From Candidatus Bathyarchaeota archaeon (GTDB lineage Archaea; Thermoproteota; Bathyarchaeia; TCS64), in assembly GCA_963769425.1 (NCBI GenBank), contig CAVYLP010000002.1, positions 32,001 to 96,000 of the forward strand: DNA of 64,000 bases, written 5' to 3'. The notes below the pieces were generated by a model, which ran no database searches, had not been told where the DNA came from, and worked only from the letters and a program-made list of their open reading frames with translations. Both the position numbers and the translations under genes were made by a program. Of this stretch, positions 53,884-64,000 are shown one piece after another; within the stretch, counting starts at the first letter, position 1; every line of letters begins with the position of its first letter.

Positions 53884-54591
53884 TCATCCGTGCTCCTTCG
53901 GCAGCGCCTCAGCCACAGCGGCTTCGGCCAAGACCTGTAACGGGTCGAGGACTGGCACGGAGAGGTCGCCGTCCTTCAGGACGAGACTCACCTCGGTGCA
54001 TCCGCAGATGATCATCTCAGCCCCGCCGGCTACGAGTTCGTTCGCTACACCGCGGAGTAGAAAACCTCCGTCGATGAGGTTACCCGCCTTTATGCACTGG
54101 TAGATCGCCTTCATGACATCCGCCTGCTTATCAGGGGTCGGTTGAAGCATCTCAACCTCTGCTTCCGCGTAGGCCGCTGAGTAGAGGCCAGTCCTCACTG
54201 TCCCGTCGCTTGCGAGGAGTCCAGCCCTCCGTATCTTGGGGTAGAGGCTCTTTGCCCTCCCCGCTGAGAGCTTGATCATGTTGAGTATAGGTACACGCAG
54301 CTCCTTCTGGAGTGGCTCCAGGAAGTAGTGGGCAGTGTTGCAGGGAATGATTATGAAGTCGGCGCCAGCTTCCTCGAGCCTCTTCCCCGCCCGAATCAGC
54401 TCAGGCAATGGGCTCGGCCCAGTGCCGATTATAGCCGCCGTCCTGTCTGGAACCTTTGAGTTGCTGTAGATGATGACGCGTGGGTGGTCCTGATCCCTCT
54501 TCGCCGGGGTGGTCCTTATTATCCTCATGTAGAGGTCCGCGGTCGCCTCGGGGCCCATCCCCCCGAGTATCCCTATGATCTTCTCCGACAA
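53884..54591 (-). CDS. Aspartate/glutamate racemase
   Basis: GILGGMGPEAT, PCNTAH, GCTE; TTG start at 54591. Confidence 0.92.
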   Translation of the reverse strand: MSEKIIGILGGMGPEATADLYMRIIRTTPAKRDQDHPRVIIYSNSKVPDRTAAIIGTGPSPLPELIRAGKRLEEAGADFIIIPCNTAHYFLEPLQKELRVPILNMIKLSAGRAKSLYPKIRRAGLLASDGTVRTGLYSAAYAEAEVEMLQPTPDKQADVMKAIYQCIKAGNLIDGGFLLRGVANELVAGGAEMIICGCTEVSLVLKDGDLSVPVLDPLQVLAEAAVAEALPKEHG

Positions 54592-54625
54592 GTCGGCACT
54601 CCAGAGTGAGAGTGAGCGGCTAAAG

Positions 54626-56267
54626 TTAACGCTTATCCCTCTCACGTATGAGCTGGATGACGGAGACCAACCCAAGCACAACCGCTATAGCGTAGACGAC
54701 TACCGAGACCTGAAATGTCTCGGGGGTGAAGACACTCTGCGTGGCAAGAATCACAAGGCTCATCCCGATGACTATGGACGCCATCACGAGGCCTAATAGG
54801 ATCTTGTATGACGCTCTATCTACGGCATTTCCCGAGCCTATCTAGGTCGTCGTGCGCGATCTTGAATGTTATCGTGCCCGTTGAGAGCCTCTTGAAGAAG
54901 GCATTCAGGTTATCGGGCAGATCCTTCGCGCTCTGGAACGCCTCGATGAGGTCGAAGCCGGCCTTCGCGATGTTCGCCTGGTTCATCACCCTCTTCCTGA
55001 AGACGCCGGTGATGACGGGCTTCACCTCCTCCATGAAGTCGAAGTCGGGGTTCAGTTTGTAGCCGTCGTCCTCGACCATGATTATGACCTTGATCATGAG
55101 CATGGTGACCATCGGCACCCTGAGCTTGTACTTCCTCAGGGCAGCGACGACGCCCTCGAGGGCGTCCGAGCCGTCACCCGCAGCGTGGCCATCGCTCTGC
55201 ATGACGGCGAGGTAGAGGTCGTCCTTGAAGGCGTCCACCCACTGATCCCTTATCCTGATCCCTATGGCGTTAAACACCTCGAAGAGGTCGTCGACGTCCT
55301 TTTCGACTATCGCCACAAGCATCTTGAGAAGTAGGTCCCTCTTCTCAGGGCGGAGCACACCGATGAGGCCGAAGTCAAGGAAAATTAGCTCCCCCTGGGG
55401 GTTGACGAGAAGGTTACCCGGGTGAGGGTCCCCGTGGAAGAAGCCGTCCTCGAAGATCTGCTTCATGTAGGCCTTGAACCCGAGCTGGGCGATCTCCTTC
55501 GGATCGACGCCCAACTTCTTGATGAGGTCCACCTTGTCTATCCTCACGCCCTTCATGTACTCCATCACGAGGAGGCGGGTCCCAGAGTACTCCCAGAAAA
55601 TCTTCGGTACCCTCACCTTCGAGAAGGGCTTCATGTTCTTGGCTATTAGCTCAGCGTTCCTGCCATCCTTCGTGAAGTCGAGCTCTGAGAGTATCTGTCT
55701 TGCAAAGTCCACGACGAGGGCTGGGAAGTTGAATATCTGCAGGTCGCTCGAGGTCTGCTCAGCCCTATCGGCGATAGCTTTGAGGATTCGTAGGTCCGTC
55801 TCTATCTGCTCCTTTATCCCCGGGCGCTGGACCTTCAGGACCACGACCGTGCCGTCCTTCAGCTTGCCGTGATGCACTTGGCTGAGGCTGGCAGCGGCGA
55901 ATGGACGCTCGTTGAGGTAAACAAACGTCTCCTCGATATTTCCACAATACTCCTCGATTGTTGGCTTGACCCGTTCGAAGGCTACGGGTTCGACTTTATC
56001 GGTGAGGTACTTCAGCTCCTCGATGAGCTCGGGGGAGAGAAGCTCTCGTCTGGTGCTCATTATCTGCCCGAACTTGACGAATGTAGGCCCCATCTCCTGG
56101 ATAGCGAGGCGCACCCTCCGGTTCACGTTTAAGTTCGTTGTTTCCGGCTTCTGTCTGCGGAGGCGCCATTGGATCGTGTTAGGAAGAAGGTCGGCAACGG
56201 CTACCTCGAAACCATACTTGACGAGGATTGCGGCGATCTGCTCGTAGCGTCTGAGGGGGAGCGCCAT
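54626..56267 (-). CDS. ABC1/UbiB (AarF) family atypical kinase, frameshift near 54828
   Basis: GPTFVKFGQ, AASLSQVH, KVQRP, FHGDPHPGN, LDFG. Two C-terminal TM helices are in the shifted frame. Confidence 0.88.
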
Positions 56268-56388
56268 GTTTAATCAAGAAGTAAGGCGTAGATTAAAACA
56301 TAATAGAAAAGATGTGCTTTGTGTTGAAACACGTTTTTTTTCTGGGATTCGGATAGATGGGTAAGAAAGTTACTATGATTGAGGATGA

Positions 56389-58605
56389 GTGCTGGAGTTG
56401 AGGAAGTATCTAGTCTGCATGATCTTGGCCCTCATCACAGTACTGGCCATCGTCATGTCCCCGGGGAGCCAAGCCAAGTCCAGCAACCCCTGCGCTTCAT
56501 GCCACTCCGCTTCGCGTTACCAGTACCTGGACATACTGGAAGGGAACTCGGGAAACCAGATCCCCGCATCGATCGGGGTCGGCGAGACGAAAACCGTAAC
56601 CGTCGTCATCCAGAACCAGATCGCCGCCCAGGTGTACAATACGCTGGTGGAGGTGTCTGCGACTCTGTCGTCTCAGAACGGGCACTTCAGTGTCGGGACA
56701 CCCACCATCAGCCTAGGGACGATGAATCCGGGGACGAAGACGGCGACTTGGCAGATCACGGGGGTATCCGCGGGCTCGGATGCCCTGATAATCACGGCGC
56801 GGGGTACGAACCCCCACAACAGCCTGTTGCTGACCGATTCATACGCGCCATCCGCAACTATCAGCGTCACTGGGGCAGCGCCACCGCCGACCTATACGGT
56901 CACCGTGACGGCTACGGACTCGGCGACGTCGGCCAAGCTGCAGGGGGCGTCCGTGGCCCTGGGGGATTCTGTGAAGACGACGGACGCCAGCGGTGCGGCG
57001 ACCTTCGCCACCGTCGCTGGCACGTTCAGCCTATCCATCTCGAAGGCAGGGTACACGCCCCTAAGCGAATCCATCACCGTGACAGCCTCGACTAGCATTA
57101 GTCGAAGCCTCAAACCCGAGCTTGTCCCGCCTCCGACCTACACTGTTTTCGTGACTGTCATCGACTCGACGAACTCATCAAGATTGGTCGGCGCGAATGT
57201 GACCCTCGGCTCGCAGCAGCAGGCCACGAACCCGAACGGCGTCTCCACGTTCACGGTTCAGGCCGGCACGTATCCCCTCGAGATCAGTAAGGCGGGGTAC
57301 AACCAGACGAGCGAGACGCTCGTGGTCGGTGGGGACCTGAGCATCAGCCGGAGCCTGACCCCGACGCCCGTGGCGCCGAGGTATGTCGTGGCTATAAGGG
57401 TCTCGGACGCCGCGTCTAAGGTTCAAATATCGGGCGCGAACGTGACCTTTGGCGGGGTCACACAGGTAACAAGCGCCGACGGCGTCTCGTCATTCACGGT
57501 GCTCTCTGGGACGTATCAGCTTGAGATCGTTAAGGTGGGCTACGATTCATGGAGTGAGACCGTACCGGTGAATGCTAGCGTAACCCTCAGCCGGGTCGTC
57601 TCCGCCACGCCCCCACCGCCAGCGACGGACCTCAACCCCTTCATGGCCTTCATCTACCCTCCGCTCTCCGTAACCGCCTTCGTGCTCGTCTACGCCTTCG
57701 CCGCCTACATCCTGGCCAAGAAGGAGCGGACGCCGATCCTCAACCGCCTAGGCTTCATGGCTTGGATAGTCGCGCTCATCGCCATGATAGACGGGGTCGT
57801 CTGGGGAAGGACGTCGACCACATTCTTCGCGTGGGTGCCGGACCCGACGACGATGTTGTCACTCTTCGTACTCATCTCCGCCACGATGATACTCTTCGGC
57901 GAGGGGTGGACGATGTTGTCGAAGCTCCTCGCCGTGGTGTCCTGCGTACCCGCCGCGCTCATCCTCCCATACTACTTCGGCCTCGTCAGCCTCGTCCTAC
58001 TGATACTTGTTACAGCCTTCAGGTTCGACGCCGGCCCCGCTGGGGCGAAGTCGCCGCAGGTCGTTCACAGGCGCATGGTGGCCTCGAAGCTGAACCGCGT
58101 AGTCTCTTGGCTATTCCTCCTCTTCTCCGCGTTTTCGCTGTCCACAGGGTACATCATGACGCGTCTGAACCTGGACGTCGACGTCACATTCCAGATACAC
58201 GAGCTTCTTGGGTACACATTCGCGGTGATGTTGGTGGTCCACGTGCTTCTCACACTTCTGGCGGGTTACCCGTGGAAGATGATGGTGAGAAACTTCCTCG
58301 ACAGGAGAACCTCGTGGTCCGTCGCCATGTTCCTGCAGGTGGTGACCGCGCTGCTTCTGGTCGTCTTCTCGGGTGCCCAGGTGTTGACAGGGCTCGGGTG
58401 GGCCTTCCCAACCGTGGCCTCGATCGTTCCGATACTGCCACACATAAGAATAGATGAGCTGCTGTTCTCCACGCTAGTCGTACACGGTGCGATCGGCGTG
58501 AAGTTCGCGTTAACGAGGCGCAGGATCAAGGTGCCGAGGATCGACTACATCCTAGTCTTGGTCTCGGTCGTCGCCATCGCGCTTGTGTTCCTCTATGGAC
58601 TTTGA
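56389..58605 (+). CDS. Multidomain membrane c-type cytochrome candidate: signal/TM, CxxCH, Ig-like, 3 carboxypeptidase-regulatory-like repeats, CcmF/CcsA-like TM segment, cytochrome-b-like TM domain
   Basis: CASCH at 56491-56505; three ~82-aa repeats; about 8 TM helices; His pairs in the C-terminal helices. Confidence 0.75.
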   Translation: MLELRKYLVCMILALITVLAIVMSPGSQAKSSNPCASCHSASRYQYLDILEGNSGNQIPASIGVGETKTVTVVIQNQIAAQVYNTLVEVSATLSSQNGHFSVGTPTISLGTMNPGTKTATWQITGVSAGSDALIITARGTNPHNSLLLTDSYAPSATISVTGAAPPPTYTVTVTATDSATSAKLQGASVALGDSVKTTDASGAATFATVAGTFSLSISKAGYTPLSESITVTASTSISRSLKPELVPPPTYTVFVTVIDSTNSSRLVGANVTLGSQQQATNPNGVSTFTVQAGTYPLEISKAGYNQTSETLVVGGDLSISRSLTPTPVAPRYVVAIRVSDAASKVQISGANVTFGGVTQVTSADGVSSFTVLSGTYQLEIVKVGYDSWSETVPVNASVTLSRVVSATPPPPATDLNPFMAFIYPPLSVTAFVLVYAFAAYILAKKERTPILNRLGFMAWIVALIAMIDGVVWGRTSTTFFAWVPDPTTMLSLFVLISATMILFGEGWTMLSKLLAVVSCVPAALILPYYFGLVSLVLLILVTAFRFDAGPAGAKSPQVVHRRMVASKLNRVVSWLFLLFSAFSLSTGYIMTRLNLDVDVTFQIHELLGYTFAVMLVVHVLLTLLAGYPWKMMVRNFLDRRTSWSVAMFLQVVTALLLVVFSGAQVLTGLGWAFPTVASIVPILPHIRIDELLFSTLVVHGAIGVKFALTRRRIKVPRIDYILVLVSVVAIALVFLYGL
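56881..57610 (+). repeat. Three tandem intragenic ~245-bp (81-82 aa) domain repeats
   Basis: Y.V.V...D....L.GA.V..G....T...G...F....GT..L.I.K.GY....E; first Tyr codons at 56893, 57139 and 57382. Confidence 0.85.
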
Positions 58606-60532
58606 CGCCTTTTTCTTCCCCTCCGAGAGGGTCGAGGGCATGGAAATGATGATTCCGAGGCTCATCAGGGCACTCCCCCACCAGATGACGTTGACGAGTG
58701 GCTTAGTTGACACCTGAAGGGTCAGTGTGGATGGTGGATTGTTCATGCCGATAAGTGCGCTGAAGAGGGAGTTGTAGGCTGTCTGGTCGAGGTTGAGGTT
58801 GACGTAGATGTCAGTCACGCCGTCACCGAGCACCGTTGGGTGGGCGACAAGCCCGTAGTTGGGAAAGTACTGCCCGGTGAGGACCCCACTGTATATCCTC
58901 CCCGCGTATGAGACCTGAAATGGGACGCTCATCGATGACTGCTCGGGGGCGACTATGTCGATCTCAGAGACGTAGGCGCTCCCCGAGCCCAGGCCCATGG
59001 TCACGTTCCCGACCGATAGGTCCACCCCGAGCACACTGGCGGGGGCGGAGGAGACTCCCACGGTCACCGATTGAGGGTCGGGGCTCATCGACGAACTCAC
59101 GAAGACCCCGAATAGTACGACTATAACGCCAAGGTGCATGATTTGCCTTCCTGTGAGGGCGACTGACCTGTTCTTGGCGATTGCCATGAGCACTCCAATC
59201 GTCGCTGTTATGGCTGCTACGATTAGAAGTGGAAGGACGGCGTTGACCACGGGGAAAACCGACGGGAACCCGAATACGATGAAGACCAGTGACGCCGCGA
59301 CCGTGGCCACCAACGCGCCAAGCCGTATCTTGATTGACTTCTCACTCGCACCACAGAATAGAGAAGCCAACACGAAGGCGAGGACGAAGGGCATCGAGAC
59401 GTAGTTGTAGAACTCGATGCTCGTTGACGCTGCGGTCCCGGTCACGAGGTTCTGGATAGTCGGTATGATCACCCCCGCGAAGCAGACCCAGAAGACCCCC
59501 ATCAAAGACAGCTGGCTCGCGAACATCATCTTGCCCTGCAGAGGCGTCTGGCCGTTCGGCCAGTTGAGTAGGGGCTTCCCCACCTTTTTCTTGAGGTAGA
59601 AGAAGTATGCCGTCGCGGCTACTATGCAGACGAGGAGGGCGGGGCCGGCTGGGGAGAAGGCGTAGGCGTGCACCGAGTTCAGTAGCCCGCCCCTGGTGAG
59701 GGCGCTGAGGAAGAGTAGGGAGTCGAAGCTCAGGACCACCATGAACTCTCTGAATAGGTCCTTACGCGCGCCTGTGGATGAACTGTGGAAGTACGCAGTC
59801 AGGGCCAGCCACGGCAGCAGGCTCGCCGTCTCGACGGGGTCCCAGGACCAGTAGCCACCCCAGCCTAGAACCTGGTAGGCCCAGAGCCCCCCTAGGGCTA
59901 TACCTATCGTGAGTAGAAGCCACCCCGACTTAAGTGAGAGGTCGAGGAGCCTCCCCTGCTTCGCGCCGGTCTCCATCTCGGCGAGGGTCAGGGCGAAGGC
60001 GAGGACAACGAAGGCATACCCCGCGAAGACGACTTATTGGGTGGTAGAACATCCAGATCGACTGCAGCTGGGGATTGAGCCCCATCCCGTCAGGTGGAGT
60101 TACTGTGAACCGCTGGAACGGCCCCTTAAACAGGGTCAGAACCATGAAGTAGAGGAACAGCAGCCCTAGGAGCTTCGCCGCGGAGGCGTCCTTGGATTGG
60201 GTCCTCTGCATGTAGAGCCGGTACCCGATGTAAGCAATCCCGATGAAGAACGCGATCATTAGCAAGCTCCCCGATGAGCCACCCCAGGAAGCGAAGAGCT
60301 TCAGCGTCCACGACAGGCTTGAGCTGCTGTAGTCGTAGACCTGCTGGATGGAGAAGTCTGAGACGAGGAAGGACCTGATGAACAGGATGTAGTAGGCGAC
60401 AAACATCGCGAATCCGAGGGCTGATAACCCGACGCCCAGCCCGCGCCTCGCCCCACCCCGACGAGTGAACAGGATGATGTCGACGGTGACGAGGATGAGG
60501 GTGATTATCAGTATGATGTCTTCGGGTTCCAT
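58552..60532 (-). CDS. ccmF: Cytochrome c-type biogenesis protein CcmF, frameshift near 60036
   Basis: WGGSSGSLL, GLNPQLQ..HP, WAYQVLGWGGYWSWDPVE, SVHAYA, HLG, KPLVNVIWWG. Confidence 0.9.
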
Positions 60533-60646
60533 AGCTAAATTACACCATTACTCCCGATGGGCATTCGTCGGAGTGTTCACGGATAAATGTTCATAGCTAG
60601 GGTTCAAAAATTTGAGTATTAGAGTCACTTCATCAGGAATTGATGG

Positions 60647-60672
60647 TGGTGGGCCTGCAGAGATTTGAATCC
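60647..60672 (-). mobile_element. tRNA 3'-end fragment (att-like scar)
   Basis: Reverse complement GGATTCAAATCTCTGCAGGCCCACCA gives T-loop, 3' T-stem, 3' acceptor strand and ACCA. The 5' part of the tRNA is absent. Confidence 0.55.
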
Positions 60673-61062
60673 ACTATAAATCATAAAGAAATTTTCCGAA
60701 TAGATCCTTTTTCAAATGTTTTTTTCGAGTTTCCCCTCTCTTCAACCCGCCCGCCACAACGTTTCCCCATAAGTGGTAACCACTAATAAGGTGATTCCAC
60801 GGGACGCCTTCACACCGATGAATGAACACATCCAAACAGTGTTACGCCTCAGATTGAATGGCGTCCACCCAACCACGCCTACATTCACATCGTTCAATGA
60901 ACCGCGATCCACTCCCTTCAATGATTGTTGAAGGCATCCGGAATGCAACGGTTTTCAATGGATATTCAATGGTTTTGGACACGTTTCAGATGGTTCCGGC
61001 GACGCGTCCCCGACGACTTCGCTATATATAGTTGAAAGTGTGGGGAGTATGAGCGGGAATTG

Positions 61063-61256
61063 GTGAGTGAGTCCCAGATTGAGAAGAAGGGAGCATCAGA
61101 TAAGGATGAAGATTTTTGAATTGTTTGTTGATTTCTATGAGCTGCCTAATTCTGAAATCGACATATCCGGACCTGGGAAACGAGTTTTTGCTCACCGTAG
61201 ACTCTACGTTGAATCCCATCAATGTGCCCAAGGACTACGAGCCAGAGGAAATCTAA
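61063..61256 (+). CDS. Possible small acidic protein interrupted by two T-run frameshifts
   Basis: TATATATA upstream. Removing one T from each of two T5 runs gives MSESQIEKKGASDKDEDFELFVDFYELPNSEIDISGPGKRVLLTVDSTLNPINVPKDYEPEEI. Confidence 0.3.
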
Positions 61257-61273
61257 CCATCTGAAGACATTAT

Positions 61274-62770
61274 TTAGAACATTTTCGCAATTGGTCTCGA
61301 TGCGATCTTGGTTGACTCAACGGCATAGACTGCGAGGGCTAGTGCCCAGAACCTATCGTCATGTGTTCCCTCTGGGTGGTTGAATAGCAGTTTCCCCGTT
61401 TTAGCTAACTCGTGTCTCTCGACGTTGAGCTCGTGGAATAATTCCGAGTCATAGGGTATGTGAAGGAGTGGTCGTAGGTTCGAGTTGCATGATGGGCACG
61501 TCGTCCTCCATTCTCCCTCCCTCGTGTCGATGTAGCCCTCCCAATCACAGCTTACGCATTCCGCCTTCCTCATCTTCTCCTTGAGGGCAGTCGCCATTGT
61601 CTCTTTGCTCTGATCTGTGAAGTTGATCCCCTCCACATACTTGATTCCGCCTCTATGCATATCCTCGACGATGTAGTCGCCGACGTTGCTATTGTCTGCA
61701 TATATTGACCTTATGGTTCTCCAGTTGTCCTGTAGGCGTTTAACGTAGCCTATGACGGCTCCATAGGCGGTCTCGAGGGGGAAGACGTGGAGGTGGCGAA
61801 GGTACAGGTGGTTTTTGGCGCGTTCGAGGACGGCTACAGCGGTGTAGTCGTTGTGTTTGCCGAAATCAATGCCTAGGAAGAATTCGCCTGTTACTTGATC
61901 TGTTGCTTTGGTATACTCTAGCTGGCTGTCCTGAGCGAGTGTGATGAGGCTTGTTGATAACCAGGCGTTCATGTCCTCGGTCCACTCGCAGAGCATTTCC
62001 CTTCTCCACCGTGAAGGGTCTCCTGCTAGTTGTACCTCGACCATTCGCACAATCTCTGGGCTCAGTGGCCCGTTTGGTGGGAGAGCCTCAGTGTATGGTA
62101 CTTTGTGTTTGCTGAACGAGTCGTATGCCTTATCGTGAAACATCTTGTGGAATATGGAGTCGGTGTTCCAAGGCGTCGACTCCGCTATCAAGTAGCCGTT
62201 CGTTGTGTTAAGAGTGAAGAGGACAGCGGTGTAGAGGTCCGCATCGTCTCTGATGAAGTTCGCCTCCATCAAGTAGACGACCCGAGCGGTGTGGCCTCTT
62301 ATCGTCTCCGGTACCGGTGACTCAGCTAGGATTGTGGAGCCGTTCTTCAACCGTATCACTGTATGTAACAGCTTATCCTTGCCGCATACGAGTTTGAATA
62401 GCTCTAGGTTGTTTGCCTCCATTCTGTGCAGGTGGTCTGTGAGGGCTTTGAAGGCGATGTTTTTGACTTGATCGAATTTTGGGGCCGTGATAAGGACTAA
62501 GCTGTCCCTGTTGAGGAGGGCTAGGTGGAGGAGCTTAGCCATGCCGTTGAAGGTCTTGCCCGTCTGCCTAGCTTGGAGATTTGCTATGAAGTGGGACTCA
62601 TCCCTGAGGAATGGATACATGTAGGGGTAGGGGTCGTAGTAGAGCCAGCGCCTGCAGAACTCAATCGTGTCCTTTGGGATCATCACTTGGCTCGGGTACG
62701 AACTCGACTCGACGCTCTCCCCGACTCGCCTTAATCTTTCGTATCTCCTCCTCAAACTTTCGAAGGTCAC
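61274..62770 (-). CDS. terL: Terminase large subunit-like protein (ATPase plus RNase H-fold nuclease)
   Basis: Walker A ARQTGKT, IRG, Walker B-like VYLME, coupling motif STP; nuclease GIDFG..D, YAD, HDD. Confidence 0.85.
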   Translation of the reverse strand: MTFESLRRRYERLRRVGESVESSSYPSQVMIPKDTIEFCRRWLYYDPYPYMYPFLRDESHFIANLQARQTGKTFNGMAKLLHLALLNRDSLVLITAPKFDQVKNIAFKALTDHLHRMEANNLELFKLVCGKDKLLHTVIRLKNGSTILAESPVPETIRGHTARVVYLMEANFIRDDADLYTAVLFTLNTTNGYLIAESTPWNTDSIFHKMFHDKAYDSFSKHKVPYTEALPPNGPLSPEIVRMVEVQLAGDPSRWRREMLCEWTEDMNAWLSTSLITLAQDSQLEYTKATDQVTGEFFLGIDFGKHNDYTAVAVLERAKNHLYLRHLHVFPLETAYGAVIGYVKRLQDNWRTIRSIYADNSNVGDYIVEDMHRGGIKYVEGINFTDQSKETMATALKEKMRKAECVSCDWEGYIDTREGEWRTTCPSCNSNLRPLLHIPYDSELFHELNVERHELAKTGKLLFNHPEGTHDDRFWALALAVYAVESTKIASRPIAKMF

Positions 62771-63193
62771 TCTCCAACTCCTCCACGTTCACGTCTTTTA
62801 TGATGGTGTATGCCGCGTGTAGGTTTTTGGTCATTGAGTTTATTGCCATGATCTGGAGTGGTTCAAAGTTCTCTGGATCCTCAACGATCATATCCAGTTT
62901 CTTGATTATCGACTCCAGTTTGTGTAGGTACTGAACCCGCTTCTTCCTCGTATTTATGCTGGCTCGTCGAATGGCTCTGGGACCTTGTTTGTCAGCCTTG
63001 CTCTTCCCATCATCCTCCCCTTCACCCTGAGCCTCTCCGTTGTTTCTGTAAGGAGATTCACGTCCTCCCTGATATCCATCAAGTTTGTCCGTATCCTCAG
63101 GAAGATGTTTGTCGTCTCCTGGTCCTCCGCTCCAGTGTCCAGCCATTGTCTTAGCCTCCGCCGCTCTTGATCCGTGAAGATGTAGCTCCGCAT
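62661..63193 (-). CDS. Helical protein(s) upstream of terL, putative small terminase/partner; probable frameshift near 62975
   Basis: ORF 62954-63193 (MRSYIFTDQERRRL..) and the second half of ORF 62661-63203 (..KLESIIKKLD..EELESDLRKFEE) both look protein-like. The latter overlaps the terL start. Confidence 0.55.
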
Positions 63194-63948
63194 CCTGGCT
63201 CACTCCGTGACATCGTTAACATGCGGAAATCAACCCATGTTTCGCTCTAATCCATGGAAAATTAGTTAATTCCCGGAAGATCGAATCCCGTACGAGATAT
63301 CTGGATACCTTGGATTCTCTATCGGTCCTCAGTGAGTTGCCAATTACCACGAGGATTCGGAGGGTGTTATAGTTTCTCTTGGGTCGTTGGTCCTCCGAGA
63401 ACAAGTGTATATGCTTAGCGCAAATTGTCGTTAACGCTCTTTTCACCTCATTTGGAGGATTAGACGAGCTTGATTTAGCTGTAGAACGGCTCCTTGAAGC
63501 ATTTTCTTCTCCCAGTCATTGTCTTCAATGGCTCTACTCTAGGTAGGAGAATGAGATCGCTTAGTTGGATTTTTATCAGATTAAACTTTCCGTTTAATCC
63601 TCCTGAATTGGCTTTTCTTTCATGAATTTAAAAAGGTTTATGGATTACAAAAACAATTTCTGGTGAATGTTAAGTGGTATCCTGCGTTGGTTTAATTAGT
63701 GCATTGTGGACCAAGTAAATGTAATTATAGAGTCGTGTTAATTTTGATCATCTAATATAGAGTTGAACGGTGGAGGGAAGGATTGATTACTGTAATGTTG
63801 GTGGGCCGGGCCGTGTTCATCCCAAAATTGGGGTGAATACCTCCAAATGCGCGCGATAAAAAGTGGAAATAAAACTAGGGAATCGAACTTACAAATGTAA
63901 TCCAGTGAGTCGCAATCAGTATTTTTTAATTCAGTAATATTAATCACT

Positions 63949-63973
63949 TAGCGGACCCGGTGGGATTTGAACC
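63949..63973 (-). mobile_element. Second tRNA 3'-end fragment (att-like scar)
   Basis: Reverse complement GGTTCAAATCCCACCGGGTCCGCTA. The upstream bases ATAGG cannot complete the T-stem with CCCAC, so it is truncated at the T-arm. Confidence 0.65.
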
Positions 63974-64000
63974 TATATGGGTTCAGGTTCTGATTAATAG

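Follow-up and report, generated by a model that had tools for sequence, protein, structure and literature searches.

The window analysed in this work, a 64,000-nucleotide stretch of contig CAVYLP010000002.1 from a Candidatus Bathyarchaeota archaeon (G000:C2:32001-96000), contains near its end a 3.1-kb unit, here called unit A (60673-63798), which carries an intact gene for the large subunit of a terminase (TerL) preceded by two small genes, PartA and PartB, and which is bordered by copies of a tRNA 3' end. A viral packaging origin of these genes, and their integration at tRNA-Val(TAC), are very likely. On balance, we consider unit A to be probably the stranded packaging module (PartA, PartB and TerL) of a head-tail virus-derived element of the type typical of this Bathyarchaeia family, still kept by selection. 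The genome is a 2.55-Mb metagenome-assembled genome (MAG) in 6 contigs, with a completeness of 91% and a contamination of 4.9%. G000 denotes the genome under study, other G numbers related genomes, L numbers TerL loci and C numbers contigs.

The original prediction described two co-oriented tRNA 3' fragments, cut at the T-arm, enclosing about 3.3 kb of AT-rich DNA. Both fragments (scars 1 and 2; Table 1), read on the minus strand, do correspond to tRNA 3' ends interrupted in the T-arm, and ARAGORN found no whole tRNA in the 60647-63973 region. The extent of the AT-rich parcel had to be redrawn: the GC content drops at ~60540 from ~0.60 to 0.36-0.52, and the low-GC DNA runs for 41.3 kb, past the window end, to an intact tRNA-Val(TAC) gene (C2:133949-134025, minus strand) located 38 kb beyond the window. 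A contig of G008, a genome of the same genus, is collinear with window positions 54537-60655 (82.9% over 6127 nt), carries an intact tRNA-Val(TAC), identical to that of G000, exactly at the position where scar 1 begins, and past this tRNA is collinear with C2:133949-142709 (78-87%). Because G008 is collinear on both sides of its intact tRNA-Val, it represents the empty site and G000 the same locus with a 41.3-kb insert. This low-GC island is inserted at the 3' end of tRNA-Val(TAC) and is absent from G008. The homologue of the CcmF-like gene on the left flank is present in 3 of 18 genomes of the genus, G000 included.

Scar 1, the left attachment site of the island, consists of a 9-nt core, TGGTGGGCC, which is the reverse complement of the tRNA 3' end GGCCCACCA, and of a 17-nt tRNA-like arm that was brought in by the element. 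Over its whole length it matches the tRNA-Val end at about two thirds of the positions, and its nearest tRNA within the genome is tRNA-Ile(GAT) (21 of 25 positions); allowing up to 2 mismatches, its 25-mer was found in G000 only and was absent from the 78 other genomes of the order (79 in total). Between C2:92500 and C2:134100 the core occurs just three times, at 92647 (window 60647), at 95799 (window 63799) and at 133949, in the intact tRNA-Val. The middle copy belongs to scar 3, whose exact 15-nt match would be expected by chance in 41 kb, on both strands, at a rate of ~1e-4. These core repeats are the signature of a tandem array, composed of the terminase-bearing unit A and of a 38-kb unit B (63814 to C2:133948); the relative order of the two integrations is not readable from the sequence. 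The right border of the terminase unit is scar 3, and not scar 2 as had been proposed, since scar 2 lies in the next unit. The suspicion that the two fragments stem from separate events was borne out, scar 1 being the attachment site of the island and scar 2 the start of a repeat within unit B.

Such tRNA fragments are rare, since the T-loop motif occurs 44 times in the 2.55-Mb genome and only 17 times outside tRNA genes. The nearest tRNA of scar 2 within the genome is tRNA-Arg(CCT) (22 of 24 positions, or 22 of 23 by another count). No Rfam family matched the scars, and no tRNA-derived repeat longer than 13 nt was detected near the cassettes of L051, L095, L043, L084, L075 and L121.

An abrupt GC change in a MAG with 4.9% estimated contamination could also mean that the switch at 60.6 kb is an assembly or binning artefact joining the DNA of two organisms. 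We compared the window with assembled Logan contigs of related strains (90-99% identical) from four sediment runs, which cover the flank, the junction between a repeat and terL, terL itself, PartA and PartB, and the spacer up to 63744; no joints were found among them, and none of these contigs bridges 60559-60613, which speaks for an artefact. On the other hand, the island ends fit a tRNA-targeted integration exactly: they share the core, the tRNA is intact at one end, and a tRNA-like arm is present at the other. A single G008 contig is collinear with both flanks, and in the four runs the flank and the module occur in related strains at similar contig depths. We therefore regard an artefact as extremely improbable.

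The 498-residue TerL comprises an ATPase and an RNaseH-like nuclease, with a Cys4 zinc-ribbon insert at residues ~403-435. Its AlphaFold model, obtained with a 40-sequence alignment, reached a pLDDT of 90.7, and the top Foldseek matches included full-length T4 gp17 (5.2e-21) and Sf6 gp2 (5.1e-17), as well as the D6E and HK97 TerL. In a 40-sequence alignment the Walker A motif RQTGKT, the catalytic E169 and the acidic residues of the nuclease (D302, D359, D471 and D472) are invariant. The modelled fold and the catalytic motifs are those of a terminase large subunit. The canonical aspartate of Walker B (hhhhDE) is missing, and the clade of the window reads 'LME' at this place. The idea that this D-to-M change denotes a dead ATPase was dropped, as 'AE' stands at the same place in the complete proviruses L119 and L120.

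A protein-collection search with TerL yielded 345 matches among 8000 scored candidates. In the best 120 of these 345 homologues, which are 59-100% identical to the window TerL, the Walker B 'ME' was found in 115, Walker A in 115 and the Cys4 zinc ribbon in 108. TerL has a match in 36 of 61 related genomes. In a quick IQ-TREE tree of 68 TerLs the full-length 'ME' proteins (14 of 14) group as a single clade (support 99); its sister (support 98) is a clade in which provirus TerLs occur alongside a 7-member cassette-only subclade. We did not find the window clade in two scans of 2.9 million viral contigs (IMG/VR), the best relatives having 44% identity (40 loci) or, in the scan that used the signature patterns of the clade, 31% (14 loci). 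Likewise, in the accessible portions of the literature (including PMC10848311, PMC11705971, PMC8987985 and a 2026 Asgard preprint) we found neither this TerL clade nor such cassettes described for Bathyarchaeia.

Table 1. Features of the terminase unit and of its borders (window coordinates).
Feature	Position	Strand	Remarks
Scar 1, left attachment site of the island	60647..60672	-	G008 collinearity stops at 60655, inside the core
Truncated repeat copy	60726..61068	+	5'-truncated copy of a ~440-nt repeat, between terL and scar 1
Tiny ORF convergent with terL	61067..61264	+	46-65 aa; probably not a gene
TerL, terminase large subunit, 498 aa	61274..62770	-	Terminase_6N 4.6e-8; phrog_2 4.4e-34
PartB	62661..62975 (about)	-	conserved helical core, ~85-100 aa
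PartA	62954..63193	-	79-aa conserved small protein upstream of PartB
AT-rich spacer	63204..63798	.	GC 0.36-0.43; one 76-aa ORF at 63216-63446
Scar 3, junction of units A and B	63799..63813	-	TGGTGGGCCGGGCCG, exact 15-nt copy of the native tRNA-Val(TAC) 3' end
Left end of unit B	63814..64000	.	continues to C2:133948; Pfam scan, GC profile, G008 empty site
Scar 2, tRNA-Arg(CCT)-like 3' fragment	63950..63973	-	136 nt inside the left end of unit B

The terL gene was intact, as originally described; the single overlapping helical partner of 180 aa resolved instead into PartA and PartB, encoded in different frames. PartA is 43% identical to the protein encoded before terL in L047, from the same genus, and is also conserved in L030 and L036. 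Homologues of PartB are found directly before terL in 12 loci. In the PartB model the N-terminus is disordered and residues 66-145 form three helices, a fold with no diagnostic feature; searches against Pfam, PHROGs, PADLOC and PDB profiles gave no match for this protein (none below E 0.05 in the PDB search), and a protein-atlas search returned unnamed clusters only, partly viral. PartB is a possible small-terminase-like partner of TerL.

In order to place this arrangement among its relatives, the open reading frames (ORFs) of 90 TerL loci were clustered; cluster representatives and several whole loci were annotated, and gene clusters were annotated across all loci only if seen in at least 3 loci. 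In the complete proviruses (L120, L119, L112, L075 and L087-L090) the genes follow the order major capsid protein (MCP), portal, tube, gp10-like, baseplate or fibre, two or three small genes and TerL, after which come an ABC-ATPase/GNAT gene, cargo, an integrase and the tRNA. As terL ends the structural block in this virus group and does not precede the portal gene, one of the grounds on which the window had seemed anomalous falls away. The gene order in the window clade is ABC-ATPase/GNAT, PartA, PartB, TerL, and reduced forms like that of the window occur in L047 (same genus), L051, L049 and L028. The ABC-ATPase/GNAT gene adjoins terL, before or after it, in 39 of the 90 loci (for instance L052:7315-8775 and L110:11431-12882). 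Its product, of ~490 aa, has an ABC-type ATPase N-terminus and a GNAT domain, and matches phrog_293, phrog_11143 and phrog_886. In unit A its place (upstream of the module in L043, L052, L053, L069 and L027) is occupied by the spacer, which showed no tblastx similarity to 19 related loci and no Pfam or PHROGs match, and whose 76-aa ORF is without homologues.

No capsid, portal or integrase gene was detected in the window end, in the 38 kb beyond it, or in unit A and the island, where TerL was the sole virus-type match of a Pfam scan of 68 ORFs. The prediction that these genes are missing was thus confirmed for the unit, the island and the 91%-complete genome, and the flanking contig, when inspected for the rest of a provirus, held none. 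Of what had been sought past position 64,000, the intact tRNA came to light, and the integrase and the capsid did not. At the level of the whole genome, G000 gave no match to Phage_capsid, Phage_capsid_4, phrog_1650, Phage_portal, Phage_portal_3 or Phage_tube_2, two of these six profiles being also silent in control genomes and so of little weight. A tblastn search with 29 head and tail proteins of relatives returned none at E<=0.01, the only two matches in G000 being those of host-like proteins in the same query set, and the virion clusters of the neighbourhood survey had no match in the genome either. The sole integrase-like match in G000 lies at C1:319917-320648; as a tyrosine-integrase-like match it spans C1:319694-320648, directly adjoins tRNA-Ser(CGA) and probably marks another integrated element.

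Portal and capsid genes are not adjacent to TerL in the close homologues, as had been anticipated. Seven window-clade loci have at least 4 kb on both sides; within 10 kb, one contains a capsid-like gene (L056), one a tail-fibre-like gene (L043) and five neither. The genomes of these relatives tell a different story. A full or near-full TerL of the window type is present in 11 family genomes, 7 of which also carry MCP and portal genes of one type (G002, G024, G030, G032, G033, G034 and G036, the G036 portal with two stops) and 4 of which carry neither (G000, G006, G029 and G018); among the other 26 family genomes, MCP was found in 3 and portal in 2. The portal/capsid module of the relatives is located 7-35 kb from TerL or on another contig, which implies that the module derives from an ordinary head-tail element. 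The window TerL clade is not capsid-less at the genome level, and the idea of a capsid-less clade, considered at one point, was weakened by the head and tail modules found in most of these genomes.

The separation of modules in the relatives raises the alternative that the cassette belongs to a dispersed, vertically inherited particle system resembling a gene transfer agent (GTA), the head and tail genes of which would sit in the unassembled 9% of G000. The higher frequency of MCP and portal in the TerL-bearing genomes is in line with this proposal, as is the contig C50 of G032, where portal (285134-286417), MCP (282869-283765), tail genes (264.7-270.7 kb) and the ABC-ATPase/GNAT, PartA/PartB and TerL genes (250.0-254.2 kb) all lie on the same strand and in proviral order, the TerL cassette being set apart from the tail fibre gene by ~12 kb of genes for transport and metabolism. 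G032 and G097 share 93.9% identity in the portal (omega 0.137) and 97.7% in MCP, values comparable with those of host genes, and in the complete Bathy-6 genome a full head-tail module is found 23-35 kb from the TerL cassette, on the opposite strand. Several things speak against it for the window copy: no head or tail gene was recovered from the six-contig assembly, either with the six profiles or with the 29 proteins of relatives; the cassette lies here in an integrated island and not at a vertically inherited site; and the system is known from genes alone. Moreover, G097 has a second TerL, of another type, directly after the tail genes, so that the window-type TerL may not be the one to which the head module belongs. 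For G000 we hold this alternative to be improbable. In the relatives themselves, the modules of L110/L181 (complete Bathy-6, C1:1451833-1463705 and 1486000-1490000) and L052/L182/L178 (G032 C50:250-287 kb) are separated by cellular genes, and such syntenic head-tail modules and TerL cassettes, which appear to be under purifying selection, are candidate GTA-like systems or long-domesticated proviruses.

The view that the terminase is something other than ordinary provirus debris, also part of the original prediction, gained support from substitution patterns, by which TerL looks constrained. In the syntenic pair L049/L052 omega was 0.137 for TerL (dS 0.44) and 0.36 for PartB; the flanking host genes (dS 0.31-0.32) gave 0.146 for a gamma-glutamyltranspeptidase and 0.136 for an FAA hydrolase. 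Three Bathy-6 genomes hold a five-gene cassette between the same host genes, with a TerL omega of 0.07-0.08, within the range of the flanks. As for the window copy, counts of strain differences in terL, PartA and PartB were taken from the 40 differences listed of a total of 362; among these, 7 of 8 in TerL are synonymous, and the strains concerned share the repeat/terL junction and the spacer upstream of PartA. Together, these data suggest, by a modest balance, that the TerL cassette is kept by selection in its stranded state and is not drifting.

Orphan terL genes are usually prophage remnants, and unit A might likewise be provirus debris, in which all but the last three genes were lost by internal deletions and TerL, with no present function, is still whole only for lack of time to decay. 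This general expectation is matched by the loss of the ABC-ATPase/GNAT gene, the integrase and all virion genes, by the repeat inserted beside terL, by the decayed pieces of the same module elsewhere in the genome and by the strain differences in PartA and PartB, which are mostly non-synonymous. In addition, NitKor-E1, an element of Candidatus Nitrosopumilus koreensis AR1 with only TerS and TerL, was judged 'likely a relic' in the portion of its description that we could consult (Krupovic et al. 2019, PMC6563490). Against debris stand the listed TerL differences, 7 of 8 synonymous in strains with the same reduced context, a 498-codon frame with every catalytic motif intact, and the TerL omega of 0.14 in syntenic relatives, equal to that of host flanks. 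We consider debris rather unlikely, though it is the alternative that we take most seriously.

Several observations weigh against a packaging module kept by selection. The 7:1 ratio in TerL rests on 8 sites, and the differences listed for PartA (3 synonymous and 6 non-synonymous) and for the PartB core (3 non-synonymous) point the other way. The window copy is without the ABC-ATPase/GNAT gene that is kept beside terL in 39 of the 90 loci; this regular neighbour of TerL in Bathyarchaeia survives in G000 only as a C-terminal fragment away from unit A. That fragment (C4:352257-352481) is part of a wider debris that also includes a TerL fragment (C3:227776-228006) and PartA/PartB pieces, with paralogous debris of PartA at C3:87302-87511, C4:318999-319130 and C4:351914. 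A further module fragment lies at C3:131586-131849, so that fragments of TerL, PartA, PartB and ABC-ATPase/GNAT are scattered over the genome. There is also a second TerL, of a different clade, at C6:24124-25464, which with its upstream small gene spans C6:24124-25900. The scattered debris and this second TerL reflect repeated gain and decay of such modules in G000, a pattern that fits turnover and not one fixed host gene. TerL, PartA and PartB matched none of the PADLOC defence-system models (0 families), the left junction is without independent confirmation from reads, no contig bridging it, and, as the genome is 91% complete, head genes could sit in unassembled DNA. Finally, there is no ATG, GTG or TTG near the conserved core of PartB in the window. 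Upstream, the PartB ORF runs on without a stop to 63146 or 63203 and overlaps PartA, which uses a different frame, and in all window-clade loci the PartB frame remains open for 70-90 codons across PartA (window 62954-63203; L042, L049, L052, L053 and L069); together with the missing start, this suggests overlapping genes or a programmed frameshift.

Unit A very likely came in through site-specific recombination at the 3' end of tRNA-Val(TAC), and it now lies, integrase-less, between tRNA-end copies at the outer edge of the 41.3-kb tandem array, the other unit of which carries urease and transporter genes. If unit A is a packaging module kept by selection, TerL, with its small partners as putative DNA-recognition or regulatory subunits, would bind and cut concatemeric DNA and hydrolyse ATP. 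As the cell has no detectable capsid that TerL could load, the cassette could act only in trans, its targets presumably being related head-tail viruses, or virus-like particles, entering or resident in the population. We only infer this action on invading viruses as the present role of the cassette. Interference with packaging by related invaders is the role that we favour, although in absolute terms we think it rather improbable. Its specific form, a terminase-only cassette in capsid-less cells in which a complex of TerL and its partners cuts the concatemers of invaders or jams their packaging motors, is doubtful as it stands; it would represent a type of immunity outside the defence-system models searched. 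In a weaker variant, the cassette may let the island be packaged into the capsids of invaders.

A separate alternative is the satellite, or packaging parasite, that had been put forward for the unit, in which unit A or the whole 41-kb island loads its own DNA into helper capsids. Unit A is bounded by attachment-site repeats and carries its own TerL and small partners, and 41 kb is a head-full size. In cis-mobilisable elements, tandem arrays at one tRNA are mobilised together with the neighbouring element, and the array at tRNA-Val would permit the same. Nevertheless, in Pfam and PHROGs searches neither unit yielded a gene for an integrase, an excisionase, replication or regulation, which weakens the proposal; none of the 68 island ORFs matched Phage_integrase, and a split integrase of the SSV type was not found either, no frame longer than 85 aa spanning the reconstructed circular junctions of A, B or A+B. 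The cassettes of the syntenic relatives have remained in place over dS 0.3-1.0, and no helper provirus was found in the genome. A satellite is accordingly, in our opinion, very improbable.

The DNA between terL and scar 1 was originally described as a tiny convergent ORF followed by noncoding sequence. The ORF is unconserved, and the remainder turned out to be a truncated copy of a ~440-nt repeat with 14 copies in the genome (84-92% identity), the other copies reaching ~95 nt further left. The copy of the window ends in a TATATATA box and the family in a CGCTATATATAG box; further copies lie, for example, at C6:480562-480897, C1:414799-415143 and C5:11788-12085. In the sediment runs the contig depth over this segment is 60-376, against ~5-10 on the flanks (10-40x). 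No Rfam match and no conserved ORF alongside the repeat were found, and it could be an element resembling a miniature inverted-repeat transposable element or an RNA gene. The tiny ORF had no Pfam match, and none of the other 13 repeat copies has a conserved ORF on its right.

Scar 2 begins a second repeat, of 122 nt, whose flank at C2:95962-96082 (from window 63962) is 88.5% identical to C6:46524-46645, with partial matches at C4:247658-247695, 23 nt 3' of an intact tRNA-Arg(CCT), and at C3:318387-318413. At its start are a T-arm fragment resembling that of tRNA-Arg and a short hairpin, and the repeat probably forms the terminus of a further family of integrating elements.

Unit B encodes a pyridoxamine-oxidase-like protein, Usp, an aquaporin, Amt, UreDGFE, a thermosome subunit, UreC, UreB, UreA, a urea transporter, an IS110 fragment, a CLC channel and a Na/H exchanger. 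The ureC gene is split into ORFs of 195 and 390 aa in different frames (C2:105743-107469), owing to a frameshift or an assembly error. The island (window 60673 to C2:133948, window-equivalent 101948), which G008 lacks, thus supplies a complete urease operon, a urea transporter and Amt, and looks like a horizontal acquisition of urea and ammonium use. On the left flank, the CcmF-like gene (58552-60532) is read as two overlapping ORFs of 474 and 200 aa; its G008 homologue lies in a single open frame of 662 aa.

To our knowledge, terminases are regarded as strictly viral. According to the consulted part of one paper, the terminase complex had not been found in non-viral elements (PMC6563490). The present case adds a terminase-only unit that has sharp borders, lacks an integrase and can be compared with an empty site, and a family-wide TerL clade, marked by a zinc ribbon and an altered Walker B, that was not found in viral contig collections. 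It also adds purifying selection on TerL, observed among syntenic relatives and, from limited data, for the stranded copy as well. If this constraint holds, it would point to a cellular or parasitic use of the packaging enzyme without a capsid; if it fails, the locus would represent an unusually well resolved case of provirus decay within a tRNA integration array. The relatives offer, in addition, head-tail gene sets that are candidates for vertical inheritance in Bathyarchaeia, for which few viruses have been described; we found no account of such sets in the literature.

Among known systems, virus satellites such as the phage-inducible chromosomal islands (PICI) keep integrase, replication and control genes, and usually encode TerS and not TerL. 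Unit A resembles them in being small, flanked by attachment sites and provided with packaging genes without capsid genes, and differs in that searches of Pfam and PHROGs revealed in it no integrase, replication gene or helper-responsive regulator. Gene transfer agents of the RcGTA type are domesticated head-tail gene sets. The likeness lies in the relatives, where packaging and head modules are split by cellular genes, syntenic and apparently under purifying selection; in contrast, no head or tail genes were detected in G000, the window copy was acquired by integration, and all of this is known from genes alone.

The head-tail proviruses of Bathyarchaeia, as far as the accessible text describes them (Duan et al. 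2024, PMC10848311; PMC11705971; L075, L084, L112, L119 and L120), share the TerL superfamily and the small upstream genes. They also integrate at tRNA 3' ends, and their TerL ends the structural block near the attachment site. They differ in having MCP, portal, tail and integrase genes and a TerL only 29-46% identical to that of the window, to which the window clade adds the zinc ribbon and the 'LME' Walker B, a combination not found in IMG/VR.

The closest published parallel that we are aware of is NitKor-E1, a cryptic integrated element from the same phylum-level archaeal group, at least as presented in the available sections of its report (PMC6563490). Its TerS and TerL are its only head-tail-virus genes, and unit A is likewise terminase-only; its authors regarded the function as enigmatic and the element as a probable relic (Krupovic et al. 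2019, PMC6563490). NitKor-E1 has retained a tyrosine integrase along with VapBC and a restriction endonuclease, none of which is found in unit A (PMC6563490). Unit A, unlike NitKor-E1 in those sections, comes with an empty site, a tandem array at tRNA-Val, a defined TerL clade and data on selection.

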